The notes under the pieces are model-generated. The model saw nothing but the letters and a program-made list of their open reading frames with translations, was not told where the DNA came from and did not search any database. 64,000 nt of DNA from the NCBI GenBank assembly GCA_018816245.1, contig JAHIVW010000002.1, positions 18,314-82,313 of the forward strand, written 5' to 3'. The translations under genes were made by a program, and so were the position numbers. Source of the stretch: Nanobdellota archaeon. GTDB lineage: Archaea; Aenigmatarchaeota; Aenigmatarchaeia; QMZP01. Below are positions 9,801 to 61,227 of the stretch, piece after piece; the stretch's first letter is position 1; each line of letters opens with the position of its first letter.

Positions 9801-9801
9801 G

Positions 9802-19696: not shown

Positions 19697-19718
19697 AGGC
19701 TGATTGGTGACACCTGCT

Positions 19719-25447: not shown

Positions 25448-25462
25448 TATAACAGTGTTATT
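25448..25462. repeat. palindrome TATAACAGTGTTATt, copy 4
   Basis: Read directly from the sequence. Overlaps the TAA stop (25458-25460) of the convergent giant gene. Confidence 0.8.
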
Positions 25463-28400: not shown

Positions 28401-28727
28401 CTCCTCTGAAAAATTCAAGAGAATTGTTCCGAATGGGGAGACACGTGCCGCAAAGATCTTGCCTGTTCCTTGTAACTGAAAAAGGGTAATTGTCCCGTTT
28501 GTTGTGGTGACCTCACGTGTTTCGCCGACGGTATACCCAAGTGACAGAGCGAATTCCAACTGTTCCGCAAGATCGTTATCTGTTGCGATTCGGAATGCTA
28601 TGTCTGATTGCGTTAACATTGTTTGTGAAATGATCATTGGAGGCGAGTATGTGACATTCTGGGCAGCAGCGATTGTGGGAAGCAAAAGCAAGCCGAGCAA
28701 CAACAACCATTTCATTCTCCAGAACAC
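25458..28727 (-). CDS. giant secreted Cys-rich multidomain protein (MopE-like metal-binding motifs, DUF2341-like and discoidin-like regions)
   Basis: 1089 aa. Signal peptide ...LLLLPTIAAA|Q. Tandem Cys-rich repeats (DYPY[ST]C.G.CW.CN.GN). Three CxxxDxDCDG motifs (ETCNGIDDDLDGSIDEG, ETCNNVDDNCDGIVDN, ELCDGLDNDCDGYIDDE). WWDDHFSYRKEVTV...DIRFVKDGGELPYD is DUF2341-like. C-terminal F5/8-type-C-like block. Confidence 0.8.
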   Translation of the reverse strand: MFWRMKWLLLLGLLLLPTIAAAQNVTYSPPMIISQTMLTQSDIAFRIATDNDLAEQLEFALSLGYTVGETREVTTTNGTITLFQLQGTGKIFAARVSPFGTILLNFSEENSLTLFTKTGGMSFNLSDRTVHHSWGDFGKSGAGCDSGECFYLCAAWNIEQNSVYNDICGPVCTTCLESATVFYSPACVGCATCAAALVGWCSGSCLTDVCAWYPCFEDCNAKDGYYNSQWEYYCDGDQRWKHRHYIDFFCPTNVPGIIDPTTFCDSTIPYVDNTLVEVCQYGCDPTTNQCNGAVACYQDTDCGVDGWVNAPFCNGNDVWQVWRTYTCNNPGTQSASCASSDQQQLKQQCTSGSCSNGECGGSASCTNPDYPYSCQGACWMCNGGNDMYTLCCPQAGVQPQWCCPNNGPYCNTQTGACTNCGGDYPYTCGGTCWKCNAGNENNFLCCKPDGSTYCCPYGSVCDLENSGCSTLQPETCNGIDDDLDGSIDEGIPPEGCGTGLCAGGVQVCINGQWSSCSTVGNTQPETCNNVDDNCDGIVDNLASQSCGSDIGICHPGTQTCTNGVWGTCGGSGYVPPATELCDGLDNDCDGYIDDENVCGNYPSVTLDDPGPGDTVHGSQLVFSCSANDAQQLKNITLFTNVTGAYVALATLDTTQQEAVLQHATAPEGICDIVWNCQAYDPDNHEAWAPSPAVVRFVYTNSPPTTPRTLDCNNQACGGVYKNTIELACNGSDDPDGDELAYEIEGFFADPINSGSWWDDHFSYRKEVTVQGNGSGTTTVRVSLNDPDLLLHANVDKSDIRFVKDGGELPYDLRGNVAVVAVTLDSEGTSFYLYYGNVNTQTTETTLDEESFRIVHTFQNGIASTCRNGGQHCWDDMISHDWISLTGTGGASGDFATSGTDPRPLGSEYWTVDGSQHVGWVRLDLETVSRISALSQSVYNDSRTNTYNISVANSTDGPWLEVVPSAPRSQITTFDIPDVDVQHVLLFVTDMSAGSPMSEELEVWEIRVLESLLGTEETRVGKQWYPLGSHEQGSGANQPHVHWDITSLPSQRGVQVRCRASDGEGVSSVLTSSPFSIQGSFFAGRVDGYK

Positions 28728-32892: not shown

Positions 32893-33058
32893 CGCCGGCG
32901 GCAGGAGTCGAACCTACACGTCCTTTCGGACACCAGATATCCAGATGGTTGCTCTTCACGTCCGCCGTTATCCGAGTCAAGCCAAGCGATCATCGAGCCG
33001 AAGCCCTCGCCATATCTGATTCTCAAGTCTGGCGCGTTAGCCATTCCGCCACGCCGGC
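32893..33058 (-). tRNA. tRNA-Ser (anticodon TGA) with a ~83-nt intron at the canonical 37/38 position
   Basis: Exon 1 is 33058-33022 (GCCGGCG TG GCG GAATGGCTAA CGC G CCAGA CTTGAG). Exon 2 is 32938-32893 (A TCTGG + variable arm TGTCCGAAAGGACGT + GTAGGTTCGACTCCTGC + CGCCGGC + G73). The intron is 33021-32939. The exact junction is ambiguous because ATCTGG is duplicated. Confidence 0.75.
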
Positions 33059-34463: not shown

Positions 34464-35303
34464 TTAGTCATAGAAGAGCATGAGCTCGTCGATCCGATTG
34501 TCTGCAGAAGGATGCACAACAAAAAACTGATTGAACCAGCTCCTCCCAAAGGGATTGGCAAACCACATATGCGCATTTGCGTTTCCACCAGCACTCGGTT
34601 GCTCAAGAATTTTCTTGTTGATCTTCCGGATCGCAGATGCAAGCGAATCAGGATATTGTAGCACAAGCATGGCACGATAATCTGCCTTGAATGTGTCCTT
34701 CGGTGAGATTGTGATATGCACGAGGATCGCTGCAAACGGGACAATCAGCAACGCGGCAATCGCGCTCAGAAGCCCTTTCTGTTTGTTGGTATTCCTATAT
34801 TTGAGATACCCGTATACAAAAGCACGGCTTGCGATCGCAGAGAGTGGTGCAGTGAGAAATGCGACCACGTTGCGTGCAACTGTCGTACAGGTGGCGATGT
34901 GCTCTATTTCGTGGGCAAGCACCGCCTCGATCTCATGATCATCAAGCTGTTCCATGAGCCCGGTCGTGAGCGCAATCGAGCTCCGGTCCCTGCTCCAAGC
35001 AACAGAAAACGCATTAGGAAGGTTGCTGTCCATGAAGTAGAGTCGCGGAACCTCGATATGGCGATTCAGGGCCTGTCGCGCAGCGAGTTCTGTGATCACT
35101 GGATCATCAAGGGGAACTGCCTTGGAGGTCCAGAGCAAGTATCGAGGACCAGCAACATACGCGAGGACGAGGAGTCCTGCAGTCATCCCTGCTGCTGCGA
35201 GGAGGCCGATGGTCCCGGCAAGGAAAAAGCCGACTGCTCCGAACATGAGCCAGAGTGTGAGTCCTAGCGTCATGACCGTAAACGCGTTCATGGTCTTCAT
35301 CAC
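34464..35303 (-). CDS. htpX: M48-family zinc metalloprotease HtpX
   Basis: N-terminal TM helices, the HEIEH zinc motif (AVLAHEIEHI) and further TM helices. Confidence 0.8.
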   Translation of the reverse strand: MMKTMNAFTVMTLGLTLWLMFGAVGFFLAGTIGLLAAAGMTAGLLVLAYVAGPRYLLWTSKAVPLDDPVITELAARQALNRHIEVPRLYFMDSNLPNAFSVAWSRDRSSIALTTGLMEQLDDHEIEAVLAHEIEHIATCTTVARNVVAFLTAPLSAIASRAFVYGYLKYRNTNKQKGLLSAIAALLIVPFAAILVHITISPKDTFKADYRAMLVLQYPDSLASAIRKINKKILEQPSAGGNANAHMWFANPFGRSWFNQFFVVHPSADNRIDELMLFYD

Positions 35304-35346: not shown

Positions 35347-35964
35347 TTATGCGTCGGATGCTGGCTCGCACTTCGCTGCAGAGACCGTAATGCTGTTTAG
35401 GAGGTCATACCACTTGTTCCAATCCCTGCTCGCATCTTCATCGAACGAGTATGATGTGAGGCCCGAACCAGGACCAATTTGTATATCAACAAGTGAAGCT
35501 GAAAGACAAATAGTTACAATATCATGACCAATAGGCAGCGTTTCATGCTGTATCCCCTGATTGGAACATTGGACAGGTGGTTGGTAATAGTTCGCAGTCT
35601 CGTCGATGCATCCAGCAGAACTGAGTGTTGCGGTCGTTGTGCTTCCTGATGAACCACCCTCCCCTTTCCTTGACGGGGTTGTGTGGGCTATCCCAGAATC
35701 TACGACGACGAAGCAGGTGGTTAGTCCGTTATAGGTAAACGAGGATATCGCGTATGATGCTGTCCTTGGGTTCAATCCATCATCGAAATCTACACAATGT
35801 CGTATAGACCTCTGGGTAGGTTGATCAGAAGGGACTGCCTGTTTCCCAGCAGTCACATCAAACCCAGCCAACCCAAACTGGAATGCAAGAAACAGGATCC
35901 CGACGACTGCTGCAAAAAGAACGAGAGAGACTGTACCTCTTGGTTCACGTTTCCGCGCTCTCAT
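35347..35964 (-). CDS. hypothetical exported protein with a possible class III (pilin-like) signal
   Basis: 205 aa. N-terminus MRARKREPRG|TVSLVLFAAVVGILFLAF resembles the RG|Q[VL]EF... N-termini at 60703 and 54465. Confidence 0.5.
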   Translation of the reverse strand: MRARKREPRGTVSLVLFAAVVGILFLAFQFGLAGFDVTAGKQAVPSDQPTQRSIRHCVDFDDGLNPRTASYAISSFTYNGLTTCFVVVDSGIAHTTPSRKGEGGSSGSTTTATLSSAGCIDETANYYQPPVQCSNQGIQHETLPIGHDIVTICLSASLVDIQIGPGSGLTSYSFDEDASRDWNKWYDLLNSITVSAAKCEPASDA

Positions 35965-41550: not shown

Positions 41551-42222
41551 CTATTTTTTGACAACAAGTCCTTTGGTGTCAATGAGCAGCGGATAGATAT
41601 CTTTTCCGTGGTTCGTTCGGCGCATCTTCCTGACTTGTAGTGTCCGTCCGGTTGCTTCTCCAGCACCAACATACGTGATCAGAATGACAGCATCGGCAAC
41701 ATATTCTTCCACACCAAACAATGATAGATGCTTTGTTCCTTCAGGAACCTCTGATGTCAGAATCGCTGTTATACCCTTTCTCCGTTTGATTGTGTTGATG
41801 ATGTTGATGAGTCGCCGACGAATCTCGGCTTTCGAATCCATTGTCATACCAAGCACGGTTGCAGAATCGATCACCAGTCGCTTGGCCTTCAAATCAGAGA
41901 TCTCATTTACAATTGTAGAGGAGAGATTCGATACCTGCGACGGATCATGATAGATGATTCGGAAGAGGTTTTTCTTCTCGTATTTTTCGAAGTCCCATCC
42001 AAAGGCCAACGCATCCCCTTTGATATCCTCGGGGCGCTCTTCAAGCGTGATAAAGAGACCACTCTCTCCATTCTGGACCCCTTCCCAAAGGAACTGGGCG
42101 CCGAAGAGTGTCTTGCCAGAACCTGTTCCTCCTGACATGAGAACAACAGAACCTTCGACAAATCCCCCACCGACAAGCGAGTCCAAGCCAGGAATGCCTG
42201 TCTTAATACGCTTCTGGAGCAT
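41551..42222 (-). CDS. KaiC/RadA-like RecA-superfamily ATPase (single domain), second paralog
   Basis: GIPGLDSLVGGGFVEGSVVLMSGGTGSGKT and LVIDSAT. Confidence 0.8.
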   Translation of the reverse strand: MLQKRIKTGIPGLDSLVGGGFVEGSVVLMSGGTGSGKTLFGAQFLWEGVQNGESGLFITLEERPEDIKGDALAFGWDFEKYEKKNLFRIIYHDPSQVSNLSSTIVNEISDLKAKRLVIDSATVLGMTMDSKAEIRRRLINIINTIKRRKGITAILTSEVPEGTKHLSLFGVEEYVADAVILITYVGAGEATGRTLQVRKMRRTNHGKDIYPLLIDTKGLVVKK

Positions 42223-45172: not shown

Positions 45173-45466
45173 GTGGAAACGAGATTGTTGGTTGCGCTCG
45201 GAATAATTGTGATTTTTTTCCTTGTTGTTTTATTATCTGTTTCAGGATACGTGAAACCAGAGAAGTTCTGTAATACAGATGCTGATTGCACAACAAGCTG
45301 TGGAAAAGAAATAGGTCGAGGTGATTGTTTTAATAAAGGTTTTGTATTACCCGACAATCCTCCAGACGGCATCTGTTGTCTCTGTGAGGATTGTAGATCG
45401 TGTATAACATGTGAGTGTATATCAAATACCTGTGTCTCGAAAAGCACCGGCGGCCGTTGCTGTTGA
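45173..45466 (+). CDS. small membrane-anchored Cys-rich protein
   Basis: 97 aa, GTG start. N-terminal helix LLVALGIIVIFFLVVLLSV, then 14 Cys in ~65 residues (ends ...CLCEDCRSCITCECISNTCVSKSTGGRCC). Confidence 0.5.
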   Translation: METRLLVALGIIVIFFLVVLLSVSGYVKPEKFCNTDADCTTSCGKEIGRGDCFNKGFVLPDNPPDGICCLCEDCRSCITCECISNTCVSKSTGGRCC

Positions 45467-48524: not shown

Positions 48525-48556
48525 CTCCCCGGTTCCCGGGGAACCTTCTTTTCTTT
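48525..48556 (+). terminator. GC hairpin plus T-run after the stalk operon
   Basis: CCCCGG-ttc-CCGGGG (or GGTTCC-cgg-GGAACC) followed by ttcttttcttt. The TAA of the convergent giant gene (48555-48557) lies in the T-run. Confidence 0.55.
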
Positions 48557-51500
48557 AGGTTTTTGTTGTTGCAGGGACGCTCTTGTGATCATTACTCATG
48601 TGACTGGTGAAGAAATCATAAAGTGGGCCCCTCCCAGACGATGATCCGGATGTTCCGGACGACCCAGATGCCACTGATGTTGCGGCTTTTGCAGTGGCCT
48701 TTGTGTTTCCGACAAGACCGCCGCCAGCTTCCCCACCACCAAAGAAGTCAACAACCGTGCCCCCGAAATCACCGATCGGCTGCGTAAACCAGGCCGTGAC
48801 CCCGAACAGGCAGATCACGCCGGTTCCTATTGCGGCAATGTTCTCCCAATGATCGAAGATGCTGTCGTCTTCCTCGTCGTCATCGTCTTCGTTCTTCCCT
48901 TCGAGTTCGTCGATTTCCTTCTCGATATCCTCGGCCTCGTCCTTGTGATCGGCGATTGCGGGAAGCGCCCAGGTCGCGTAGCACGCGGCAATGGTCAGGG
49001 CAGCGCCGAAGAGCGTGCACCAGTTCTTTCCGGCGACGCTAGTTGCAGTGGACGTTCCTGTAGCGGCGCCGGTTGCACCTGCATCTTGGAAGGAGAGTAT
49101 TTGTTGAGGTTCAAGCGGTGCAAGATTAGGAATTAAACCTCCTTGATTATCCCCAATATTTGGAACGGTCCCATCTGGGAGGCTTCCTGGATTTCCTGGC
49201 GGTTTTGCACTAAAAGGAATACTCGGATCCTCAGCAGGTGGAATACTTGGCGCAGCCTTCCCAGCCGCTTCATCAGCAGGCGACGCCTTCCCGGTTGTCT
49301 TCTCCTTGTAACACGCAATCCCGAGTCCAACAACGATAATCCCTGCGATAATCAGTTGCGTTGTCAGACAATTCGCTGCGTGTTCCTCTTCTGCGAGATC
49401 ATCTTCCAGCTCTTCCTTTTCTTCAAGAAGCGAATTCAGGACATCTTCGCCGTCCCGGAAGAGGGTTACGTCCTGCTTGGCCGTCACCGCAACGAGCTCG
49501 CTCTTTTGGGGAAGCTTCAGTTCCATGTCAATCTGCAAGGTCGTGTCAATGTCCCCGACATCATCTTCCGTGGTTGACACGCCTTCAAGTGGCTTTGGAG
49601 AAATATGACAGATGTACTTCTCGCCATCCGGTTCACACCCAATGAACGTCTCTTTCCCGAAGAGTTTCGCAGTTACGCTGTCGATGGTCGTTCCTGCAGG
49701 CACCTTGGTCAGCTTCACCGAAATGTCAAACCCTTTCAGGAAAATACACATTGCCCCCCGTTCCTGGACCTTGCACTCCGGCTTCTCAGGATCAACGCTG
49801 AGAATGGCAAGACTAATTTTGGACTGGGGAACGCACACACTATCAAGATCATCCCCACCCGGGACACAGGAGTACTCCGGTCCGAAGGATGGATTGAGTT
49901 CACAGGCACAGTCGAGACACGAATTCTTTGCAGACTCACCCAGATCCGCCTGGCATACCCCATCATGTTCAAGATACGAGAACGAAATGTCAAACCTCGG
50001 AAGATCCAGAGCAAGATCCTTGATCTGCTCGCCTGCGCCGTCCGGGAACTGGGCAATCACGAAAATAGTCGGCTCAAGGGACGCAGTTAAGGCACCCTCA
50101 TCAAAACTGGCCAGATCATGATAATTGGAAATTTGAGGAACCGTAAGCGTGCACGTTAGGTGATTGGCATTCAATAGGTCACAGGTAACGGAACAAGGGA
50201 CATCCTCATCAAAGAAGCAGCCAATTCCACTGAGAATCACCCCAGTCGGTGGTTTCACGAGATGGAATTCGACGAGTGCGTCATTCTCCTGCGTCGCAAC
50301 AAAGGCTGTGTCAGAAACTGCATCCAGATCCAGCTTCACTACATCAAGAACGCGGCAGATGTCGTTTGGTCCTGGTGTCCCTGTTGAATCGCAGTACTCT
50401 CCTGCTCCGCAGCCGGTATCGATGCAACAAATCTCACCAAGGGATGCAATGCCGTCACCGCAGTAGTTTGTTCCAATCCCGGTTGCAAAGCTGAGGTCAA
50501 GCGTCTCCCCGACGGTGACACCACTACACGTTGTGACCGTTGTCGGGAAGCTCAAGGTGGTGTAGTGGGTGTAGCTCTTTGTTGGAGCACCATTCACGAT
50601 CGTGAACGGCACCGTGCAGGTAAGTGGCAAGACTCCATTGACGACTGTTCCTTTCGTACATGTTGCACTGCATGTGGACTGGCAGGCACTCCCTTCACTC
50701 TCCGTGCAACTCGAGGTGCAGGTTGGTGCCCCGACGCTGTAACCGCCAGGAATATTATCAAGTTCAATGCTTGTTGTGACCTCAACACTCCCGTCTGCTG
50801 CGGTTCCGCTCACCCCGGTTGGGTTTGTTGTAATGAGGTGAATATTCGATCCTGTTGGCAGTGTTGTACAGACACCGGGGTCATCAGGATTCGAGGGATT
50901 CACAAAGGTACACACCGTTCCTGAGGCACAAGCATCAGAACAATCCTTGGCACAATTCTGAACATTCTCTCCGAGGCCGCTTTCGCAGACCGTGTTCCCA
51001 CAGGTCCATGACCCAACCGTGATCTGCGGGAAATTCGTGGAAATGGTTTTCGTGAGCGTTCCCTGCTTGGTCGCATCACTATACACCATCACAAAGGTCA
51101 TGGTATTTGGTGACAGAACATAATTCTCGCCAGAACAGGCAGGATCAGCAGGCACCACAACAGCACACTGGTAGGTATCATTACTCACCGGCGTGCAGGC
51201 AGCCATCGTTTCCGGGCCCCCGCCAAGCGAATAACGCGCTTGACTGAGTGATGCACCAGGAAGCATGTTGACAACCTTGAATTGGAGCTGTAGAGTATTC
51301 GCTACCTGGCAATTGCTGATTGCGGTGTTCGGTGTCCCGGCATTCACCAGTGCCATGGTTTCCTGATAACATGAAAAGGTCCCGTCGTCGAGGACGCACA
51401 CCATCTGATTCGGGCATCCGCCACAGTCAATGCAAGCAGTGATGGGTGTTTCTCCGGATTCGCAAATCCCATTCCCAATTGAGCCAGAAGCCGCAGTATA

Positions 51501-52337
51501 TTTCTCAAGCTGGATTCCAGAACCAATTGCTGTTGCGAGCTTCGGAAAGAGGAATCCCCACTTGGTGTCAAGGCCGGTGAACAGGTTCGTCCCAACAACG
51601 AGCGGCACGAATCCTGCAGGCGGTGCATCAGCCTTCAAAACATAGAGCTTGTCAGCGTTCGGTGCTTGGATGCTTGTCACCCAATCAGCACTGACCGGAA
51701 CTGCCTTGTTCTGTTCAATATAATGTTTGATGTCGTTCACGACATCAACACTCTTCGCGTTGACCACAAGTTCGTTAATTGCCGTTGATTTGTGTTCGAA
51801 TATGTTTGTTCCTGTTCGGACAACCTGGTCCCAGTACGCGGCAACGAGCTGATCACCAGCCCGGTTCAGGCGCGTCACAATGAGAAAGCGCGCCACTTGC
51901 GGGTTGCTTGAAGAAGGGGGCGGCGACAGATGATTGGCAACTTGAGACCATGTTGTTGTGTGCGTTGCAACCCCGCCGCTGGCAATCACGGTTGCAAAGG
52001 ACGGAGTACTCGAACCAATACAATCCGTTGGTGTTGCTGCGTTCTTACATGGGATAATGTATGCGGTGTCAAGCGTAAAGGTTGTTCCGGAAATCATCAT
52101 CGACACTTGTGGATCAGTTCCCGGCGTCACGGTTATCACACGGTCTGCTTGTTCCGGAAGATACACTTGCTGATCAGGAAACGCTGGTGTCCCCAAATTC
52201 ACAATCTTCACGTTGGTTGTGTGGAGTGCCGAGACAACGCTGATACTCATGACAAGATAGACCGCTGCTGCCACACTCGCTAACACAACCATTGCTCGAA
52301 GATTCATCCTAGCACGCTCCTGTAATCGCTGCATCAC
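48555..52337 (-). CDS. giant Cys-rich membrane-anchored surface protein, type B (B2)
   Basis: 1260 aa. Signal/TM MNLRAMVVLASVAAAVYLVMSISVVSA. Four Cys modules (GNGICESGETPITACIDCGGC, TCGNTVCESGLGENVQNCAKDC, YCGDGIASLGEICCIDTGCGAGEYC, DGVCQADLGESAKNSCLDCAC). An acidic linker, then several C-terminal TM helices and a D/E run. The in-frame ATG 52307 is 1 nt after the upstream stop, so that may be the true start. Confidence 0.8.
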   Translation of the reverse strand: MMQRLQERARMNLRAMVVLASVAAAVYLVMSISVVSALHTTNVKIVNLGTPAFPDQQVYLPEQADRVITVTPGTDPQVSMMISGTTFTLDTAYIIPCKNAATPTDCIGSSTPSFATVIASGGVATHTTTWSQVANHLSPPPSSSNPQVARFLIVTRLNRAGDQLVAAYWDQVVRTGTNIFEHKSTAINELVVNAKSVDVVNDIKHYIEQNKAVPVSADWVTSIQAPNADKLYVLKADAPPAGFVPLVVGTNLFTGLDTKWGFLFPKLATAIGSGIQLEKYTAASGSIGNGICESGETPITACIDCGGCPNQMVCVLDDGTFSCYQETMALVNAGTPNTAISNCQVANTLQLQFKVVNMLPGASLSQARYSLGGGPETMAACTPVSNDTYQCAVVVPADPACSGENYVLSPNTMTFVMVYSDATKQGTLTKTISTNFPQITVGSWTCGNTVCESGLGENVQNCAKDCSDACASGTVCTFVNPSNPDDPGVCTTLPTGSNIHLITTNPTGVSGTAADGSVEVTTSIELDNIPGGYSVGAPTCTSSCTESEGSACQSTCSATCTKGTVVNGVLPLTCTVPFTIVNGAPTKSYTHYTTLSFPTTVTTCSGVTVGETLDLSFATGIGTNYCGDGIASLGEICCIDTGCGAGEYCDSTGTPGPNDICRVLDVVKLDLDAVSDTAFVATQENDALVEFHLVKPPTGVILSGIGCFFDEDVPCSVTCDLLNANHLTCTLTVPQISNYHDLASFDEGALTASLEPTIFVIAQFPDGAGEQIKDLALDLPRFDISFSYLEHDGVCQADLGESAKNSCLDCACELNPSFGPEYSCVPGGDDLDSVCVPQSKISLAILSVDPEKPECKVQERGAMCIFLKGFDISVKLTKVPAGTTIDSVTAKLFGKETFIGCEPDGEKYICHISPKPLEGVSTTEDDVGDIDTTLQIDMELKLPQKSELVAVTAKQDVTLFRDGEDVLNSLLEEKEELEDDLAEEEHAANCLTTQLIIAGIIVVGLGIACYKEKTTGKASPADEAAGKAAPSIPPAEDPSIPFSAKPPGNPGSLPDGTVPNIGDNQGGLIPNLAPLEPQQILSFQDAGATGAATGTSTATSVAGKNWCTLFGAALTIAACYATWALPAIADHKDEAEDIEKEIDELEGKNEDDDDEEDDSIFDHWENIAAIGTGVICLFGVTAWFTQPIGDFGGTVVDFFGGGEAGGGLVGNTKATAKAATSVASGSSGTSGSSSGRGPLYDFFTSHMSNDHKSVPATTKT

Positions 52338-54465
52338 ATGAGGAACTGATCATTGCTTTGACATTCTCAGGGGAACAGGTACTCGCAAAGGCGCCGGCAA
52401 CCTGTTGCGCCGTGAGGCAACCAGTTCCCTGCAGCATTGTTGCGATCGCTTGCAGATCGCTGCATGTACAGACTTGATTGAAATGATAAATGGTTGAAGC
52501 ATACGGCCCCCCAACGCGGAAGGTATCCATCCCACAGCTGTTCTTCAGGTCCATGGTTGCCTGCTGTTTGCTTGCTGTTGTTGTTCCTCCAGGAACAGGA
52601 AGTGACACCGCAAGCGGATCAGGGGTCGTCGGGACTGCCCCAGTGATCTGGAAGCCCGAGACAGGCTCCAGACCAAACGGCGACTCGGCTGAGAGGAAGT
52701 TCCCCTCGACAGTATACGTTCCGCTGACGAGTGTATCAAGCGGAGAACCACCGATTCCTGGAACTAAATGAAGGCTTGAAGGAACCGTAATCGAGCTGGC
52801 ATACTCGATACAGCTATTCACACAATCAGTGCATGTCGGATCAGTGACTGCTGCATCCCCATTCTCCGCGACAGCAACCTTGCACGCCGCGCAGGTTGGG
52901 GTGGGGTTATCATAACATCCTGATAGGTCAGTATTCAGGAAGGAATGGATCGTTTCTCCTGCTGTCAGCTTCACACTTACTGGTCCGTCAGGGACCACGG
53001 ACGTGCAGGTCGTGTATGGTGTTCCCGTTGCGACCGTCACCTCCCGGAAGGACATGGTATGAGGAACATTCACTCCAATCGTGACATCATAGCCGTTTAC
53101 GAGCTCTGCTGTAGCAACGGTTTGACTCAGGACATTGTGATCCGGTTCATAGACATGAAGGGTATCGCTTCCCGTACAGGCAACTGGTCCTGTCAGGACA
53201 CCATTTGTGTCGGTCATCCCGGAGAAGCAATCCCCGTAGATGACTGCTGCACCTGGTACTGGTGTCCCTTCGTTGTCCCGCACCCGCACGGTTCCTGTGC
53301 AGAGCAGATCAGGACAGTGTGCTGATACATCAAGTGGTGTCGCACTGTCACAACTCGCGACCTTCATCTCCTCAACAGAGACAAATCCAGCGAATCGGAA
53401 GGCATTCCCCGTGAACTCGTCTTCAACTTCAATGATGTAGGGATAGGTGAATGAGGGAGCAAAGAGGAAGGAGCTGTGGCAAATCGGCAGCGCCAAGCCT
53501 AGGATCGCCAGCGGCGGATAGTTCAGCAGCTGCTTGTTCGCATACGCGACCATGGGGGCGCTTGCGGTGAAATCAAGCCCATCAGGGAGTCGCTGTTGAA
53601 TTGTGAGATCATGATAGGAGACCCCATTAACTGTGGTAATGTCGAAGACCATTTGTTTATCGTCCTCCTTGGGGATATCCACGAACCAGTAGGTGTTCGC
53701 AAGGACGTACTCGACCACATCACTGAGCGCTTCACCGAGATCCTCGGGGGACCGGGTGAATCCTGTCCCGCACTCGTAAATCATCCCGCCGACCGGGATT
53801 CTCGAAAATCCGTCATCAGCATCTTTGACGAGGTAGAGCGAGGTAATTGTGTTGTGATCGAACTGCCGGGTGTTTGCGAAGGACGTTGCTACATCCTGAG
53901 CAAAGGAAATAATTCGGCCCAATGAGGTCGGCGTCATTGCCTGATACACAGGATTCGCTGTTGTTCCCTTAATTTTTGTTGGGATTGTTGCCGTTGCTTC
54001 GACCCTGCTGTCGAAGATTGTGATCTCAATAGAGAGTTTTGAAAGATCAAAAGTAACGTCCTTCCCCGGAAGCGGGTTGATGTTCATGTTTTCTGTAAGG
54101 TACTTCTTCAAGGCAAAAGCAAAATCAGTCTTGATCTGGTTCATGCTCGGGGCGAGATTGGTGTCGCACACCTGCCAGTAGGGGACGCCGTCACCAAGAT
54201 AGGTCGTGAATGCCGGGATCGTGCCGTCTTCATTCCCGAGCTGTTCGAGGGAAAGATAGCCGCCGTGACGTTCCATCTCGTCCACGACATGGATAATTCC
54301 ATCAGCGAGGATACCGTTCACACTGTTATGAACAAGCTGTTCGTCGCTTGAAAGGGCAGCAGGACCAATTGACGGGAGATAGTCCTGATATGCAATTGCA
54401 ATGACAACGAGTGCAACAAGAACAATACCGACCAGTGCAACGAATTCGACCTGCCCCCGTCGCAT
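52309..54465 (-). CDS. large exported protein with a class III (type IV pilin-like) signal, type A (A2)
   Basis: 718 aa. MRRG|QVEFVALVGIVLVALVVIAIA. Blocks shared with 58589..60703: HGGYLSL, GDGVPYWQVC, GFTRSP, a CarboxypepD_reg-like CTGTVRVRDNEGTPVPGAAVIYG, VPHTMSFREV and C-terminal CTCSDLQAIATML..TGCLTAQQ. Confidence 0.8.
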   Translation of the reverse strand: MRRGQVEFVALVGIVLVALVVIAIAYQDYLPSIGPAALSSDEQLVHNSVNGILADGIIHVVDEMERHGGYLSLEQLGNEDGTIPAFTTYLGDGVPYWQVCDTNLAPSMNQIKTDFAFALKKYLTENMNINPLPGKDVTFDLSKLSIEITIFDSRVEATATIPTKIKGTTANPVYQAMTPTSLGRIISFAQDVATSFANTRQFDHNTITSLYLVKDADDGFSRIPVGGMIYECGTGFTRSPEDLGEALSDVVEYVLANTYWFVDIPKEDDKQMVFDITTVNGVSYHDLTIQQRLPDGLDFTASAPMVAYANKQLLNYPPLAILGLALPICHSSFLFAPSFTYPYIIEVEDEFTGNAFRFAGFVSVEEMKVASCDSATPLDVSAHCPDLLCTGTVRVRDNEGTPVPGAAVIYGDCFSGMTDTNGVLTGPVACTGSDTLHVYEPDHNVLSQTVATAELVNGYDVTIGVNVPHTMSFREVTVATGTPYTTCTSVVPDGPVSVKLTAGETIHSFLNTDLSGCYDNPTPTCAACKVAVAENGDAAVTDPTCTDCVNSCIEYASSITVPSSLHLVPGIGGSPLDTLVSGTYTVEGNFLSAESPFGLEPVSGFQITGAVPTTPDPLAVSLPVPGGTTTASKQQATMDLKNSCGMDTFRVGGPYASTIYHFNQVCTCSDLQAIATMLQGTGCLTAQQVAGAFASTCSPENVKAMISSSCDAAITGAC

Positions 54466-54524: not shown

Positions 54525-55139
54525 TTAAATGAGTGATTCACTCTGTGCTATGCTTCCAGTTCCCTGGTTGCTCGTTGTTGGACCAGACGTTACTGGTGTT
54601 GACCCTGTCCTTTGACAGATTTCCCATGCCTGTCCAGCACATGAAACTTCACATTGGTAGCACTCCACTTCTGACGGAAGAGGGAAAAAGATGGTCCATG
54701 GAAAATGCTCTCCCCAGTATTGCCGACGTTGCGCATCTGTCCGGTGTTCCTTCCATTGCCGGCATCGTGCATCTGAAAATGCACCCGCACCCGCACCATA
54801 ATCCGCAGTCATGCAATTTGGGTCATCCCAACATCGGTTGGGAGGAGGTGCCATGCTAATCAATGCATCGGCGCATGTTGCTTCTGCATCTGCAACAGCA
54901 ATTCGTCTCGCGTCGCTTGCGGTTCGAGCACAAACCGAATCACCATGACCGTCAGCAGGGCCCAATTGCGTGATATACCACGTGCACTCGCCACCGGTAC
55001 TCCCGCCCGCCTGCTGCCCGCTCGGTGCCAATAACATCGGCAGTCTCGGGTCAAGCGCAACCGAACCAACCATGAGCGCAAGAAAAACAACAAGAACAAA
55101 ATACGCCAGATATTTTTGTTGCACGATCTTCACCTTCAT
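54525..55139 (-). CDS. membrane-anchored Cys-rich protein, unknown function
   Basis: 204 aa. N-terminal anchor YLAYFVLVVFLALMVGSVAL and 12 Cys in the ectodomain. Confidence 0.55.
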   Translation of the reverse strand: MKVKIVQQKYLAYFVLVVFLALMVGSVALDPRLPMLLAPSGQQAGGSTGGECTWYITQLGPADGHGDSVCARTASDARRIAVADAEATCADALISMAPPPNRCWDDPNCMTADYGAGAGAFSDARCRQWKEHRTDAQRRQYWGEHFPWTIFFPLPSEVECYQCEVSCAGQAWEICQRTGSTPVTSGPTTSNQGTGSIAQSESLI

Positions 55140-55194: not shown

Positions 55195-55527
55195 TTATAT
55201 AGGCCAAGTTGCCGGAATCTTACTCGCGAGTCCAGGTTCTGCAAGGATATCATACCCGATGCCCACACTCTTTCCCTTCTTGCTTACATTATAATATTTT
55301 CCGAAACCAAGAAGCAGCCCCCCTTGCGTTCCGTAGCCTTCGATTGGGCTGTTTTCCAGCAGCCCGATGGCATTGGACGCATCCTGATAGGCCTTGTTGA
55401 TTGCCTTGATTGTTTCAATGAACGGATGTGTCCCAGCGGCACGTGCCCCGGAAATTCCTGCCACAAGAAGAAGCAACACAATAACTATCATGACCCCGTA
55501 CACCGTTCCATAGTTCTTCATGCTCAT
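55195..55527 (-). CDS. small pilin-sized exported protein
   Basis: 110 aa. MSMKNYG|TVYGVMIVIVLLLLVAGI N-terminus. The start overlaps the B1 stop (ATGA, 55524-55527). Confidence 0.55.
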   Translation of the reverse strand: MSMKNYGTVYGVMIVIVLLLLVAGISGARAAGTHPFIETIKAINKAYQDASNAIGLLENSPIEGYGTQGGLLLGFGKYYNVSKKGKSVGIGYDILAEPGLASKIPATWPI

Positions 55528-58500
55528 AACGCCAGACTCCCGACATTGAGGACAAGCCCAACAACTGGGTTAAAGTATCCTACAATCGCACCAATGAATG
55601 CAAGGACATTCCCTTGCATCGCTGCTGAGGCTAATCCTCCAATTAATGCAAGAACGCAGCAAGGAGTACAAAACCAGTAACAGAGGATAGACATGATTGC
55701 TGTAATGATTTGGAAAACCATGTTTGTTGCTCCCCCTTCCTCCCCCTGATCCTCGGTATCACCAGTTTCCTCCAACAAGTCGTTTGCCAACTCGTCCCCT
55801 GACTTGATATCGTCCTCAATCCCCTTGATCTGCAGTGCGTGAGTAGCCTCCATGGTGACGAGCGCCGCGCCAGTAACAATCTCATCACTCGTCGGGATGA
55901 GCGCAGTCACAGCAAACCGGAGCGGTTCCGTCTGGCCCCCGAGCTTTGCCTTCTCAAGCGGTGGCAACCCGAGAATACAACTCAACGAATTCGAGCTGTC
56001 ACCGGCAGCACAATTCGCTTTGTGCTCATTCCCCTGGAACGTATAGGAAACATCCTGAACCTGGAGCGCTGTTGCCAAGCCGACAATTTTCAAATCAACT
56101 TTGATGCTCTTGAGGAAGTGGCACGTCTTGTCAGACATGCTCAAGGTGCATTTCACGGGTTCCGGCGTCACATGATAGACAATGAGTCCGATCAACCCTT
56201 CCTTGACGCAGAGACTCTGCGGATCGCTGCCGCCCGGCACACAAAGGAAGCCTTCTCCAAAGGCAGCGTCCTCAATACAGGAACAATCAAGGCAACAGGT
56301 GGCGGCACTCTCCCCGGTCCCGCACACCCCGTCACCACAAACGGGAACAGCGCCAACGAGCAGTTCCGGTGTTGCTGTTGAGAGGGTCACGGCAACATTC
56401 TGCGGTCCGTCATGATAGGTCGCGTGAACATCAAGATCAGCAAAGACACGATATGCTTCTTGGTCACGATCGAAAATGGGACTTGTTGGATCATCAGGAA
56501 ACACCGGCAGCGTCAAGGTGCAGGAAAGAATGTTTCCCTGCAGGAAGCAATCATCCAGCGAACAGACAAGCTCAGTATCCTGGATTCCGCAGTCTGTACG
56601 CTCAATGGTGAGACTCGTCGGGGCTTCCTTAATTTTTCCAATTATCGTCGCCTTATTCTGGATCGAACTGTCTTCAAACATCCCGGGAGAAACACTGAGC
56701 AGATACAACGAAAGCTCTGGATCTGGCTGGCAGGTATCTGCAAGTGTTGCATACTCGTTCACCGCTTCGCAGTATTCTCCTGTTCCGCAAGGGCAGTCAT
56801 AGCAGCAGCTCCCCCTTGACTCCGTCGGATCGCAGAGACCATTGCCGCAGGTCACCTGTCCAAAACCGACAGGGGGCACGGCGAGGCTGATGAGCTTGTT
56901 CGTTGTTCCGGTTGCCGTTGTGTAGGAAAATGGAAGCGCAAGCGTTTGGCTCACAGTGTAGCCGTTCCCGGATTGGTAATTCAGAATCTTGAGATTCAAT
57001 GCACACGTTAACGACGTGGCGTTCGCGCCGAGCGAACAGGTTCCGGTGCAGCTTGCCGTGCAACTCCCGTCTGTTGTCTGGCACGCTGCAGCACAACCTG
57101 CAACGCCGAGCGTCAAGGCCTCGGGCGGATTGAGGACACTTGCCGAGACCGTTAACCCTGTCCCGGCCACAGGATCGTGAGTCAGTAATGATTGTGGTGT
57201 CACGGTGACTGCAACAAGGTTCGATGTCCCAAACGGCTGGACACACTGCCCGTTGGTTGTTCCCTGTAATTGGCATTCGAACCCGCCCGTGCAACCGCAA
57301 TCAAGGCAGCAGGTTGCATCCTCACCAGTGTCACAGATTCCATTTCCACACACCCCGGTTTGGATTGTTGGGATCGCGGTCAGCAAGGAGGTTGTGTATT
57401 GTTTTCCGGATCCTGTCTGATGGGTAAAGGTCGCGGTGAGGGTGTTCCCGGAAATAACTGTTCCTGACCCGCATGATGCAGGCGGCGTCACAACCAACGT
57501 GCATCGGTACAACTCATTCCCTTGAAACACGCAGACAGGTTGTTGTGGTATCCCACCAAGCACCGCGGAAAACGAGGGCGTGCTCGCTCCGACAGGAAGA
57601 TTCTTCAGTCGAACAGTAATGGGCAGCGAGGAAGTGCTGTCACAGGTGGGGAGAACAAGCGTTGTAGGAGAAACATACTCCAGTTCATAGTCAATAAGCG
57701 AACAGGTTTCTGCATACGTGCAATAGGAACCAGAATCACAGGGACAGTCACTGCAACAATTCCCTTTCTCACCGTTTCCACACTGATTGTCGCCGCACAC
57801 TTCTCCTGAACTGCTTTGCACAACAGCAACCGGTGCATTCCGGAATCCGCTGACAAACGGAAACAAGAGAACATAATTCGATCCTGTGCTCACAATCTCA
57901 TTCCCCACAACCTGCGACACAAGGTTGTACGGCGGTGTATTCGAGAGCAGGGTCGTGATCGAGGAAGCGCTCTGAATGACGATCTTGCTGACACGCGCAG
58001 GATCCAAGGGAAGCTGCCGATAGGAGGTAATGTAGGAAGAGAGCTGCGTTGCCGCGTCCACAGACGCGGCATGGACAGCAACGGCATCGACATCAAGAAG
58101 AGTTTGATGGGTAAACTGGACAGACGCGCTTGTTCGGACAACCTTATGGATCTTCGTTGCCCACATTGTTGTTCCGTCGGGATGTTGGAGCCGCGCTCCC
58201 ACAAGGATGTACGCTGTCTGTGGGTAACTGCCTGTTGTATCGGCAACCAGGCTCCACGACTTGGTTACGGTAGCAATCCCGTCAATCAGCGGCATTGGTT
58301 CGAATGATTGGAGGGTACAGGTTGCTGGATCAGGATCCCCCTTGCACCACCAGACATAGGCAGCAATGAGCGGGTACGCTGGGGTTCCTGCTGCAGTTAC
58401 ATTGACACGAAGATCATAACTGAATGCAGTAACCTTTGTTTCTTTCGATGTCACAGAAACCAGCGGCTGGTATGTTGGTGTGAGATCAGGGCCAGAGCTG

Positions 58501-58607
58501 ACAATCCTGATTTGCATGGCGCTTGCAACCGGCATCAGCAGCACAAGACAGATGCTAATCATCGTTGCGCTGAGGAGGACCGATTTCATCATGAGCTCAC
58601 CCCACAC
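55524..58607 (-). CDS. giant Cys-rich membrane-anchored surface protein, type B (B1)
   Basis: 1027 aa. Signal peptide MMKSVLLSATMISICLVLLMPVASA. Four modules (VCGDNQCGNGEKGNCCSDCPC, VCGNGICDTGEDATCCLDCGC, TCGNGLCDPTESRGSCCYDCPC, VCGDGVCGTGESAATCCLDCSC). An acidic linker, then C-terminal TM helices. The likely true start is ATG 58592, which overlaps the A1 TGA. Confidence 0.8.
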   Translation of the reverse strand: MWGELMMKSVLLSATMISICLVLLMPVASAMQIRIVSSGPDLTPTYQPLVSVTSKETKVTAFSYDLRVNVTAAGTPAYPLIAAYVWWCKGDPDPATCTLQSFEPMPLIDGIATVTKSWSLVADTTGSYPQTAYILVGARLQHPDGTTMWATKIHKVVRTSASVQFTHQTLLDVDAVAVHAASVDAATQLSSYITSYRQLPLDPARVSKIVIQSASSITTLLSNTPPYNLVSQVVGNEIVSTGSNYVLLFPFVSGFRNAPVAVVQSSSGEVCGDNQCGNGEKGNCCSDCPCDSGSYCTYAETCSLIDYELEYVSPTTLVLPTCDSTSSLPITVRLKNLPVGASTPSFSAVLGGIPQQPVCVFQGNELYRCTLVVTPPASCGSGTVISGNTLTATFTHQTGSGKQYTTSLLTAIPTIQTGVCGNGICDTGEDATCCLDCGCTGGFECQLQGTTNGQCVQPFGTSNLVAVTVTPQSLLTHDPVAGTGLTVSASVLNPPEALTLGVAGCAAACQTTDGSCTASCTGTCSLGANATSLTCALNLKILNYQSGNGYTVSQTLALPFSYTTATGTTNKLISLAVPPVGFGQVTCGNGLCDPTESRGSCCYDCPCGTGEYCEAVNEYATLADTCQPDPELSLYLLSVSPGMFEDSSIQNKATIIGKIKEAPTSLTIERTDCGIQDTELVCSLDDCFLQGNILSCTLTLPVFPDDPTSPIFDRDQEAYRVFADLDVHATYHDGPQNVAVTLSTATPELLVGAVPVCGDGVCGTGESAATCCLDCSCIEDAAFGEGFLCVPGGSDPQSLCVKEGLIGLIVYHVTPEPVKCTLSMSDKTCHFLKSIKVDLKIVGLATALQVQDVSYTFQGNEHKANCAAGDSSNSLSCILGLPPLEKAKLGGQTEPLRFAVTALIPTSDEIVTGAALVTMEATHALQIKGIEDDIKSGDELANDLLEETGDTEDQGEEGGATNMVFQIITAIMSILCYWFCTPCCVLALIGGLASAAMQGNVLAFIGAIVGYFNPVVGLVLNVGSLAL

Positions 58608-60703
58608 GACCCTACGAACTGGGCGTCACATAATGTAATAATCGTGTTGATACCATCATTTAGTGTACAGCCACTCTCCGGGATGGAGGCCGCCTGGCTC
58701 GCGGTCAGACACCCTGTTGTTGCGAGCTCTGTTGCAATGGCATGCAGGTCGCTGCAGGTGCATGCCTGGCCGAACGAGAATGTCCAGGTTGGATAAGGAA
58801 CGCCGATCTTGAACGGCTTGATTGCACACACGTTTGTTGCCTTGACTGCAAGATCGTGCAGTTCCTGTTCTGTCAACTGCGGTACTGCAGTCGCAGCAAG
58901 CGGCACCGTGACCGTCAAGGCATCAGGTGTCGCGGGAATCGTCCCTTCGGTGATGAAGCCACCAAGGACAGAGGTTGCATACTTGATCGCCGTTGCTTCA
59001 ACAGGGAACGTCCCGGTCGGGAGATTGAAATTGAACTTCCCCGAAGGATACGTGACGCTCGGCAGTGCTGTAATGCACGCATCGATGCACGCATCGCATG
59101 CAGCCTTGATCTGTTCTATGGCACTCCCCAATACATCTGCATTGGCACAGGTGACACACGCCGGGTTTTCAGTGTAACAATCAGTTTCTGTTTCCAAGTT
59201 AAAGATAGTCATTGCTGAACTCCCCTCCCCACCGATGCGCACGATCACTGGATCGTCTCCTGTATTGACATGGCAGGTGGTGTAGCTTCCTTTCGGTTCA
59301 ATTGCAACGGTCCGGAAATGAACGGTATGCGGAACCGGCGACTGAAGGGTAACGAGAATTGGTTGCGCAGGATCCGCGTAGGAAATGTACGGCAAGTACG
59401 CATCTGCGAAGACGTCGATTTGTTGCGTGCCGCATGATGCTGTTCCTGTTGCTGTTCCGTGAACATTCGTGGTTGCGGTGAAACATTCGCCGAGGGTCAC
59501 CAGCGCGCCGATCACCGGATTCCCGAGATGATCAGTGACAGACACATTCACCGGGCACACCGGTTCGCCGCATGCTGTTGACACGACCAAGGAGACCGGC
59601 TCGGAACACGGCGCTGTTTCCATGTCCTTCACGTTCACGAATCCTGCAATGTGGTAGGGATAGTTTGAGAGTTTGTCAAAGATGCGCACAACGAAGGGGT
59701 AGGTAACAGCATAGCGGATGTTATATACTCCTGTACATCGGGCAAACACGTAGATATCAGCATCCATGAGAATCTGGCTGTTGGAGCCCGAGAAGCCCTG
59801 CGTTGTCTTGAAAGAGAAATCATCAGAATAGAACAGCTGCGGCTCCAGCTCAGAGAACGTTTTCCCGAGCACTGTCGGAATCGCGAAGCTCCGCGCTTCC
59901 GAGGAATCAGGTGTAGAAGAACCCCACCACACAAGATGGGATAAGACGTAGTTCGCTGCAAGCGTCAGGCCTGCGGAAACCTGTTTCGGTGTTCGCGTAA
60001 AGCCGTCGCCACAATCATTCATGACACCGCCCGTTGGCAGCATCGGGTGGCCATCATCCATGTCCGGGGAAAAGAGGATCGCGTACACCGTGAACCAGTC
60101 AAGCCAGCGCATTGTCGAGAACTCACCGGCAAGCGCCTGAGAAAATTGAACCAACCGGCCGAATTCCGTTGGGACGCTCAGCGAATAGCGCTCTGCTGCC
60201 TCGTACTCTTGGAGACTGATCGGCACGATGATCTCAAGATCGATCTTGTTGTCGAGAATGTTCGCATCCACCATAATCTTTGTTGTATCGACAACGACCG
60301 TTTTTCCCGGAACCGTGATTTCACTGCTGTGCTCGATTAGATAGTTTTGGATACCACGTTCATAGTCCCTTGTGATATCAGCGAGAGAACGGCTCAGGTC
60401 GTTTTGGCACACCTGCCAGTAAGGGACACCCTCTCCCTCGAAAATGGTGTGGGTTGGAACAATTGCCCCTGGTCCGATCTTGTCAAGTGTCAGGTAGCCG
60501 CCATGGAGCTCCATGAGCTGGAGCGTCTCGTCTGCGCCGTTCCGGATGAGCTGCTCGGTCACATCACGCAGCAGGCTTTCTTCAGTCCCAAGAACCGACG
60601 GCAGACTATCCGGGGTCGTCGGCTGCCGGACCATGATCGCGACGATGACTACCACAAGGAAAATCAACCCGAAAATGACAATGAATTCCAGTTGCCCCCG
60701 CAT
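58589..60703 (-). CDS. large exported protein with a class III (type IV pilin-like) signal, type A (A1)
   Basis: 704 aa. MRG|QLEFIVIFGLIFLVVVIVAIMV. HGGYLTL, GEGVPYWQVC, GFTRTP, a CarboxypepD_reg-like VCPVNVSVTDHLGNPVIGALVTLG, VPHTVHFRTV and C-terminal CTCSDLHAIATEL..TGCLTASQ. Confidence 0.8.
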   Translation of the reverse strand: MRGQLEFIVIFGLIFLVVVIVAIMVRQPTTPDSLPSVLGTEESLLRDVTEQLIRNGADETLQLMELHGGYLTLDKIGPGAIVPTHTIFEGEGVPYWQVCQNDLSRSLADITRDYERGIQNYLIEHSSEITVPGKTVVVDTTKIMVDANILDNKIDLEIIVPISLQEYEAAERYSLSVPTEFGRLVQFSQALAGEFSTMRWLDWFTVYAILFSPDMDDGHPMLPTGGVMNDCGDGFTRTPKQVSAGLTLAANYVLSHLVWWGSSTPDSSEARSFAIPTVLGKTFSELEPQLFYSDDFSFKTTQGFSGSNSQILMDADIYVFARCTGVYNIRYAVTYPFVVRIFDKLSNYPYHIAGFVNVKDMETAPCSEPVSLVVSTACGEPVCPVNVSVTDHLGNPVIGALVTLGECFTATTNVHGTATGTASCGTQQIDVFADAYLPYISYADPAQPILVTLQSPVPHTVHFRTVAIEPKGSYTTCHVNTGDDPVIVRIGGEGSSAMTIFNLETETDCYTENPACVTCANADVLGSAIEQIKAACDACIDACITALPSVTYPSGKFNFNLPTGTFPVEATAIKYATSVLGGFITEGTIPATPDALTVTVPLAATAVPQLTEQELHDLAVKATNVCAIKPFKIGVPYPTWTFSFGQACTCSDLHAIATELATTGCLTASQAASIPESGCTLNDGINTIITLCDAQFVGSCGVSS

Positions 60704-60780: not shown

Positions 60781-61227
60781 ATGCGAAAAGAGCGGAGCTT
60801 TGCCCTGTTCCTGGTTGCTTTGATGCTGCTCTCAGCAGCAGGATTTGCCGTGAGTTTTACTCCAGTAACACAATCTTCCAGCGAAGAGCCGGAGATTATC
60901 TTACCACCGCCGATTGTTGAACGGGCACTGACAACCGAAGAAGTGCTCTCAGCGCTTCGCACCGGCCGGCTTATCTATACCTATACCACACCAGAAGCCT
61001 GCGAATCCTGTGAGGCGATGAAGACAACCTTATCCGACTTTGTCACCACCTACCCCGCTTTCGCAATCATCGTTTTTCTGGAAGGAGAGCAGGAAGAATT
61101 GACTGTGCTCCTCCCTTCAGGCGAGTTCGTGCCAATCGAGACACCAATTGATGTGGACGAATTACTGGAAACCTATTGCGAAAACAGTTATATCAAACCA
61201 AAGGAATGTCTCTTGCTGCAGATCTAA
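60781..61227 (+). CDS. membrane-anchored thioredoxin-fold-like protein with a CxxC motif (tentative)
   Basis: Start at ATG 60781 (MRKERSFALFLVALMLLSAAGFAV anchor). LIYTYTTPEACESCEAMKTTLSDFV fits a beta-strand, CxxC, helix layout. The fold is assigned by eye only. Confidence 0.4.
   Translation: MRKERSFALFLVALMLLSAAGFAVSFTPVTQSSSEEPEIILPPPIVERALTTEEVLSALRTGRLIYTYTTPEACESCEAMKTTLSDFVTTYPAFAIIVFLEGEQEELTVLLPSGEFVPIETPIDVDELLETYCENSYIKPKECLLLQI

Follow-up and report, generated by a model that had tools for sequence, protein, structure and literature searches.

Are the two large, paralogous proteins encoded in this stretch of archaeal DNA pilins, or do they carry a pilin-type N-terminus in the service of another function? 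DPANN archaea rely on physical contact with host cells, and the proteins of their envelopes and contact sites are largely unknown. The stretch analysed here (64,000 nucleotides of contig JAHIVW010000002.1, hereafter the window) encodes proteins A1 and A2, to which a first-pass annotation had assigned type IV pilin-like (class III) signal peptides with a shortened motif; it had proposed that they could be tip or minor-pilin adhesins or, as a second option, that the pilin helix serves only as an anchor. Both proteins belong to a family in which the N-terminal motif is conserved; their domain layout consists of helix, linker and head; each A gene is coupled to a partner gene, B, and the pair lies in a syntenic setting. 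The reading favoured here, for and against which the balance is about even, holds that A1 and A2 are processed, helix-anchored components of a two-protein DPANN surface module and not filament pilins. It would entail cleavage of A by a peptidase, contact between A and B, and a surface role of A in the envelope or in host contact.

A1, A2 and family A

A1 and A2 (Table 1) are identical in sequence to MBU0952892.1 and MBU0952888.1, both of which are annotated as 'hypothetical protein' and come from a 127-kb contig of a Nanoarchaeota archaeon MAG (metagenome-assembled genome). The N-terminus of A1 is MRGQLEFIVIFGLIFLVVVIVAIMV, opening MRG/QLEF (the slash marks the putative cleavage site), and that of A2 is MRRGQVEFVALVGIVLVALVVIAIA, opening MRRG/QVEF. 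The open reading frames (ORFs) are as first described: the proteins align from end to end (31% identity, E 5e-119) as full-length paralogues, each with 22 Cys at matching positions, and the beta-sandwich attributed to them is of the transthyretin-like type by both family profile and Foldseek. The ATG of each gene is the earliest possible start downstream of an in-frame stop; thus, the leaders are at most three (A1) and four (A2) residues long. TATA-like boxes lie 25-30 nt 5' of both start codons. The gene content of the window is archaeal and includes PheRS, AlaRS, CDP-archaeol synthase, a PAC2 proteasome chaperone, KaiC-like ATPases, ribosomal proteins and an intron-containing tRNA (the ribosomal protein and AlaRS calls are by-eye readings of translations, without family search).

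An exhaustive profile search over 1.84 billion cluster representatives (E <=0.001) retrieved 485 clusters, of which 177 match at E <=1e-30. Most members are 600-800 aa long and share a conserved part that spans the first ~480 residues. Named members are all 'hypothetical protein', one of them from a Candidatus Aenigmatarchaeota MAG. Family A is therefore a large, unnamed and uncharacterised DPANN-wide family. Pfam, NCBIfam and PHROGs contain no match to A, barring a sub-threshold one to CarboxypepD_reg. Another homologue search returned a single relative, whether A1 alone or an alignment of 102 family sequences was used, probably because hydrophobic words swamped the candidates, and two scans of a genome-contig collection yielded neither a family A nor an AlaRS match. 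A viral origin of the family was rejected, since a scan of viral contigs was negative and no PHROG matched.

A conserved motif at the N-terminus

N-termini were counted in the best 150 of the 485 cluster representatives. At their start, 134 carry Gly, Ala or Ser followed by Gln ([GAS]Q), and several of the remaining 16 resemble truncated or mis-started gene calls. As the 134 were chosen by this pattern, Gln at +1 is present in that set by construction. Position -2 is Lys or Arg in 119 of the 134, position -1 is Gly or Ala in 132, position +3 is Glu in 120, position +4 is Phe, Ile or Leu in 112, and position +9 is Gly or Ala in 124. Leaders are basic and mostly 3-6 residues long, and about 20 hydrophobic residues follow the motif. 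Positions +19 to +23 often include an aromatic pair and a Gln, which fits an anchor that spans the bilayer. In the 102-sequence alignment, Gln at +1 occurs in 101 sequences (4.6 bits) and so ranks, over all ~700 residues, with conserved Trp and Cys columns; the interior of the helix varies freely. At the level of the family, the motif goes far beyond what coincidence would produce. One subgroup of the family (represented at loci L003, L004 and L005) has Ser for Glu at +3, as in MRG/QASF and RKA/QASF. This subgroup keeps the Gln and drops the Glu, which suggests that Gln at +1 is essential and an acidic residue at +3 dispensable.

A class III reading of this N-terminus is plausible and partly supported. 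In the DUF361 motif, QxSxExxxL, the Gln is the first residue after the cut (+1), and processing depends on EppA, a peptidase specific to pilins (PMC2910488); in Methanococcus pilin-like proteins, leaders of 5-13 residues end in Gly, and Gln at +1 and Glu at +5 are conserved (PMC3875500). A1, A2 and the family have the short, positively charged leader, Lys or Arg at -2 and Gly or Ala at -1 of rule-based class III predictions, as well as a hydrophobic stretch that would be retained after cleavage (hydropathy 3.1-3.6 over 19 residues; helix 3-25 in the structural model). Together with Gln at +1 and the early Glu, this is the layout of archaeal prepilin peptidase substrates that the first-pass annotation had recognised. 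Its view of the motif as a QxSxE form shortened by two residues also holds: Glu is at +3 in 120 of the 134 sequences. The Pfam model Class_IIIsignal (PF04021) finds no match in A1, in A2 or in six of seven further family A N-termini. Its sole match (E 0.085; 13.3 bits, cut-off 23.7) places the E-Y of the family on the E-Y of the model and is aligned from there onward, two positions off the Gln register, which confirms the two-residue shift. Among the features of that model, Gln at +1 is present in family A; Ser at +3, Glu at +5 and Leu at +9 are replaced by Glu at +3 and Gly or Ala at +9. The first-pass annotation had put the mature proteins at about five times the size of ordinary pilins. Such a size is not unusual: class III signals on large archaeal non-pilin proteins are already established (PMC2910488; bioRxiv 10.64898/2026.04.22.720090).

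Other export signals were considered and discarded. A twin-arginine (Tat) signal would need the Arg pair that only a minority of members have, and a lipobox would need a Cys that is absent; neither of these, nor cleavage by signal peptidase I, would explain why residues that precede the hydrophobic segment are conserved. When every ORF start in the window was scanned for Lys/Arg-Gly/Ala/Ser followed by a strongly hydrophobic 16-mer, the only real genes to pass were A1, A2 and the ORF at 35347-35964, which had been pointed out earlier as a third similar N-terminus. It is indeed present; however, it has neither Gln at +1 nor Glu at +3 and is unrelated to family A, so the likeness is a generic one.

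The main rival explanation starts from the same segment. It holds that the N-terminus of A is a type II membrane anchor of the ordinary kind, which stays unprocessed, and that the Gln and Glu serve, for example, helix packing with the C-terminal helices of B or control of topology. A single hydrophobic segment of 19-22 residues that is preceded by positive charges and followed by an aromatic belt suits such an anchor, as do the flexible linker behind the helix, the very short leaders, the failure of class III hidden Markov models (HMMs) to match, and the lack of pilus or peptidase genes nearby among the ORFs checked. Moreover, a small CxxC protein encoded next to A also has a conserved N-terminal anchor, which means that an anchor can be conserved without cleavage. 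What speaks against this explanation is the identity of the conserved columns: they are positions -2, -1 and +1 of the class III rule, with -1 limited to Gly or Ala and Gln at +1 near-invariant, and a generic anchor needs none of these. Their conservation in a family whose members otherwise share only 20-30% identity is more than one would expect of a signal anchor alone. These cytoplasmic-side positions are the ones read by archaeal prepilin-type peptidases, and their conservation is the chief argument for a processing site rather than a plain anchor; we consider the uncleaved anchor doubtful.

The partner protein B and the synteny of the locus

Each A gene is followed by a gene for a second large, Cys-rich protein, B (B1 and B2 in Table 1). 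B1 contains four CGxGxC...CCxDC modules and an acidic segment, as judged by a transmembrane and motif scan, and is 27% identical to B2 over ~940 residues. The probable start of B2 is the ATG at 52307, one base past the A2 stop. A metagenome scan with a narrow alignment added four related loci; B proteins of the window and of these loci are 1000-1260 residues long and have 51-62 Cys. The order A-then-B is found in all five loci (5/5) that include downstream sequence, with B homologues after A in L001, L002 and L004. The junction of the two genes is an ATGA overlap in A1/B1 of the window, in L002 and in L004, and a 1-nt gap in A2/B2 and in L001.

Synteny extends to the other side of A. Wherever upstream sequence exists in the related loci, AlaRS and a small CxxC membrane protein adjoin A. 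Moreover, ORFs read by eye as ribosomal L10 and L12 follow B in L002, matching the L10-like ORF beside B2 of the window. These loci come from other assemblies, of unrelated metagenomes, and have a GC content of 61% (L001) or 41-43% (L002, L004 and L005). Orthologues of the CxxC protein lie at 5398-5856 in L002, 6571-7011 in L004 and 1572-2018 in L005; all have an invariant CxxC and a second conserved Cys pair, and the gene is always convergent with AlaRS and near the A gene. By this association the protein is a candidate extracytoplasmic thiol-disulfide oxidoreductase for the Cys-rich A and B proteins. The 22 Cys of A, the 51-62 of B and the conserved CxxC neighbour together suggest an extracytoplasmic, oxidised location.

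Two further ORFs belong to the surroundings of the A1-B1 pair. The ATG of a 110-aa ORF overlaps the stop of B1 (ATGA), and this ORF is therefore probably the third gene of an A1-B1 operon, co-translated with it. A 204-aa ORF (54525-55139) between the two A-B modules has no family match. Neither ORF has relatives in the other loci examined, and the 110-aa ORF was not seen after B in L002. At L001, positions 2-427 (+), 5' of the A homologue of 61% GC, hold the end of a Cys-rich ORF with 12 Cys in 141 residues. It was tried as a homologue of the 204-aa ORF and proved not to be homologous.

Such a gene pair could also encode an S-layer. Sulfolobales SlaA and SlaB, two large secreted proteins of the envelope that share an operon, form a two-component S-layer, in which a C-terminal helix anchors one of the pair to the membrane. 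A and B might likewise be lattice and stalk proteins of an envelope, the pilin-type N-terminus being no more than the anchor of A. In keeping with this, both proteins are large and secreted, their genes are co-transcribed, and one of the two ends in membrane helices; the pair keeps its place beside AlaRS and ribosomal L10/L12 across a GC range of 39-61%, which suggests that it has a core function and is inherited vertically; and the family is widespread within DPANN. However, no similarity to a known S-layer protein or domain emerged from Pfam, NCBIfam, the profile search of PDB or Foldseek, B is larger than A and itself membrane-anchored, and the two diverged A-B copies in the window fit variable contact or adhesion proteins better. 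An S-layer is thus an unlikely identity for the pair.

Predicted structure of A1

The AlphaFold2 (AF2) model of full-length A1, built from the 102-sequence alignment, has a mean predicted local distance difference test score (pLDDT) of 88.7 and a predicted template-modelling score (pTM) of 0.74. A helix of 23 residues (3-25) is followed by a low-confidence coil (26-35), a separate helix that begins at residue 36, and an alpha/beta part that extends to ~370. Behind it lie a beta-sandwich at ~378-452, more beta modules and Cys-rich helices that run to the C-terminus. Residues 1-372 modelled alone gave pLDDT 88.5 and pTM 0.80; compared with PDB by Foldseek, this model has no significant neighbour (best E 0.07; template-modelling (TM) score <=0.16), and no pilin is among the matches. 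The head domain is accordingly predicted to be a novel fold, for which no relative was found in Pfam, NCBIfam, PHROGs or PDB.

The beta-sandwich is better connected. The family profile matches the SusC N-terminal domain 9hfj in PDB (E 4e-4), and Foldseek with the full-length model reaches probability 1.00 with 5aq0, 9hfj and carboxypeptidase D domains (target TM 0.77-0.79; rmsd 1.8-2.6 over 73-78 columns); these matches were placed at residues 378-452 by inference from the positions in the family profile. In addition, Pfam CarboxypepD_reg scores 26.1 bits, below its cut-off of 32.3, at A1 residues 549-581. The C-terminal part of A1 is matched in some family members only. A library of viral structures gave only generic beta-sandwich modules of tail and anchor proteins.

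These models bear on the proposal that A is a true pilin: after processing, a type IV filament machinery would polymerise it as a tip or minor 'modular' pilin whose large head is an adhesin. The conserved class III-type motif and the Gly conserved inside the helix at +9 are consistent with it, as are the adhesin-like beta-sandwich modules of the head, which are common to phage tail and cell-wall anchor proteins. Modular pilins are known, among them Streptococcus sanguinis PilB, which is described as bimodular and as taking part directly in adhesion (PMC8179133), and so are large class III proteins in pilus loci. Furthermore, type IV pilus systems are reported to be encoded in Nanoarchaeota (PMC6142677). 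In a type IV pilin, however, a continuous N-terminal helix packs on the head; the helix predicted for A1 is short, and a disordered linker stands between it and the head, a feature that, as a prediction, is not decisive. Neither A1 model has a pilin-like PDB match, the full-length one matching only beta-sandwich modules and no pilin or archaeal-pilin fold. Nor do the neighbours of A include an assembly ATPase, a platform protein or other pilins: in the window, L001, L002, L004 and L005, they are B, AlaRS, the CxxC protein and ribosomal genes. No small pilin was found among the window ORFs put through Pfam (~28 of the 73 called) or in the four related loci, whose ORFs were judged by their N-termini only, and ~100 kb of related sequence holds no small major pilin with the motif of family A. 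With structure and gene context both against it, a true pilin is quite improbable, and the 'pilin' part of the first-pass annotation lacks support. A predicted helix, a low-confidence linker and a head with no pilin match favour instead its second option, the helix as an anchor.

A proposed model for processing and anchoring, and the points against it

If A is a processed, helix-anchored surface component, as favoured here, it would be made with a basic leader of 3-6 residues and would insert so that its N-terminus stays on the cytoplasmic side. A signal peptidase of class III (prepilin-type, EppA/PibD-like) would cut after the conserved Gly or Ala and leave Gln as the new N-terminus. The hydrophobic helix of ~22 residues would be kept as a membrane or base anchor, like that of class III Sulfolobus binding proteins, and not as the core of a filament. 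A flexible linker would bear an ectodomain of ~670 residues, composed of the novel alpha/beta head, transthyretin-like beta-sandwiches and Cys-rich helices. Co-translated with A, the Cys-rich B protein of 1000-1260 residues would be exported by the Sec pathway and anchored by its C-terminal helices, and A and B would together form a two-component cell-surface module, either an envelope or a contact structure. There is precedent for this reading in the class III signals of large non-pilin archaeal proteins and in Epd-type 'system 1' machinery for pili, which has been reported from DPANN archaea (bioRxiv 10.64898/2026.04.22.720090).

Several observations weigh against this reading. The exchange of Glu at +3 for Ser in the QASF subgroup makes the acidic residue non-essential. 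The leaders of A1 and A2, with 3-4 residues, are shorter than the 5-13 of Methanococcus pilins, and the Pfam Class_IIIsignal and NCBIfam models fail to recognise the family A N-terminus. No further protein with the Gln +1/Glu +3 motif, which would hint at a lineage-wide signal, was found among the window ORF starts or in the related loci. Physical contact between A and B is suggested by gene order alone. Finally, no Peptidase_A24, PilB/FlaI or TadC/FlaJ gene was seen among the window ORFs checked by Pfam or among the ORFs of the four related loci. Two ORFs were tried as the prepilin peptidase and rejected: the one at 34464-35303 is an M48 metalloprotease, and that at 17237-17968 has no family match. 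As archaeal pilin genes can lie far from the machinery (PMC3875500), the absence of pilus genes nearby is weak evidence.

A bolder extension of the favoured reading would make the Gln +1/Glu +3 motif a separate class III subclass with a dedicated DPANN peptidase, and A-B the host-contact or envelope apparatus of archaea of the Nanoarchaeota/Aenigmatarchaeota type. A might then be loaded by its pilin-like helix on a minimal type IV filament base, B would be a membrane-anchored stalk, and diverged A-B pairs could be alternative host-recognition cassettes. We hold this extension to be improbable.

Table 1. Positions of the A and B genes, the segments of A1 and neighbouring features, counted from the first nucleotide of the window
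Feature	Position	Strand	Properties and basis
A1	58589..60703	minus	704 aa, family A; ORF and GenBank MBU0952892.1, KKA90_00510, 'hypothetical protein', Nanoarchaeota archaeon MAG
A1 residues 1-6, MRG/QLE	60686..60703	minus	3-residue basic leader; putative class III site after Gly3; Gln +1, Glu +3
A1 residues 4-25, hydrophobic helix	60629..60694	minus	Hydropathy 3.5; AF2 helix 3-25; conserved Gly +9
A1 residues 26-35, Pro-rich variable linker	60599..60628	minus	pLDDT below 50-65; no secondary structure; poorly conserved columns
A1 residues 36-370, alpha/beta head	59594..60598	minus	Best-conserved part of the family; HGGYL, VPYWQxC; invariant W96, C231, C323
A1 residues 378-452, transthyretin-like/CarboxypepD_reg-like beta-sandwich	59348..59572	minus	Family profile and Foldseek
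A1 residues 453-704, further beta-sandwich modules and Cys-rich helical segments	58592..59347	minus	14 of 22 Cys; AF2; variable
A2	52309..54465	minus	718 aa, A1 paralogue; MBU0952888.1, KKA90_00490; N-terminus MRRG/QVEF
B1	55524..58592	minus	~1022 aa; Sec-type signal peptide, 57 Cys, 2-3 C-terminal membrane helices; ATG overlaps A1 stop (ATGA)
B2, B1 paralogue	48555..52334	minus	~1250 aa; 51 Cys, 3 C-terminal membrane helices, long acidic/low-complexity tail
110-aa secreted protein	55195..55527	minus	ATG overlaps B1 stop (ATGA); Sec-like N-terminus
204-aa N-terminally anchored protein	54525..55139	minus	10 Cys; between the two A-B modules, membership uncertain; transmembrane and Cys counts
CxxC protein, N-terminally anchored	60781..61227	plus	~148 aa; four-orthologue alignment; synteny; no significant Pfam match
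205-aa protein, 'third similar N-terminus'	35347..35964	minus	MRARKREPRG/TVSLVLF; Lys/Arg-Gly and hydrophobic helix; adjoins M48 peptidase gene

Other features of the window

The organism invests heavily in disulfide-rich surface proteins. The window encodes a secreted protein of 1089 aa (25458-28727, -) that has 71 Cys, a metal-binding motif of the MopE type and a weak match to F5/8 type C, a secreted protein with a lamin-tail domain and 17 Cys (5113-6018, +), a secreted protein of 97 aa with 14 Cys (45173-45466, +), and a secreted, Cys-rich protein of 568 aa with a CarboxypepD_reg domain (22920-24626, +).

Two genes encode KaiC/RecA-like ATPases: a single-domain protein at 9900-10634 (-; Pfam KaiC, 1.6e-62) and a second one at 41551-42222 (-), judged by its similar N-terminus only. 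Neither adjoins a pilus or archaellum gene. A 166-nt tRNA is found by Rfam at 32893-33058 (-; 44 bits) and is not reported by ARAGORN; its length suggests a long intron, which is typical of archaea. Conversely, the 93-nt tRNA-Ile(tat) that ARAGORN places at 19687-19779 is absent from the Rfam list. The longest ORF of a YhfC-like membrane protease (9011-9835, -) overlaps the genes for tRNA-Gly and tRNA-Val (9730-9874, -); thus, its true start must lie downstream of the first in-frame start codon.

Significance

Family A comprises at least 485 clusters, all 'hypothetical', and has a head domain with no relative in Pfam, NCBIfam or PDB. With B it makes up a surface module of two genes, conserved and with a fixed place in the genome, beside which a candidate disulfide-forming partner is encoded, and its motif is a testable processing signal that current class III HMMs miss. 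If the cleavage is real, archaeal prepilin-type peptidases recognise a wider range of sequences than described so far, and rules that predict class III signals in DPANN genomes would have to cover the Glu +3 form. If it is refuted, a structurally modelled pair of envelope proteins for an understudied group would still stand.

Comparison with known systems

Modular bacterial pilins and large minor pseudopilins, such as PilB, resemble family A in that a pilin-type N-terminus is joined to a large functional module. However, they keep a canonical pilin module and sit in pilus loci, whereas family A has a linker, a novel head and no pilus locus. The A-B pair resembles SlaA/SlaB as two large secreted proteins encoded in an operon, one with a C-terminal membrane anchor; it differs from that system in having membrane helices in both proteins and in being duplicated and diverged, and no similarity in sequence or fold was detected.

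A closer parallel in sequence is offered by DUF361/PF04021 proteins, the EppA substrates of Methanococcus and Thermococcales (G/QxSxExxxL). They have in common with family A a basic leader that ends in Gly, Gln at +1, and a Glu followed by an aromatic or hydrophobic residue and then by the hydrophobic helix; moreover, DUF361 likewise includes proteins far larger than the major pilin. Unlike these proteins, family A has Glu at +3 instead of +5, no Ser at +3, and Gly instead of Leu at +9, its leaders mostly comprise 3-6 residues in place of 5-13, and the PF04021 HMM does not match. The mature part of family A, a Cys-rich ectodomain of ~670 residues, is unrelated to DUF361 proteins.

Family A differs from the Sulfolobus bindosome proteins (GlcS, AraS and TreS, processed by PibD) in several respects: it has no substrate-binding domain, as no substrate-binding protein family in Pfam or NCBIfam matched A, and no ABC transporter neighbours, as no transporter genes are adjacent; it carries the Gln +1/Glu +3 motif; it has an obligatory partner, the giant protein B; and it occurs in DPANN. 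In architecture, the two are nevertheless alike. Bindosome proteins are large, globular and extracellular, bear a class III signal, are held at the membrane or at a short base by an N-terminal helix and, like family A, are encoded away from the pilus machinery.

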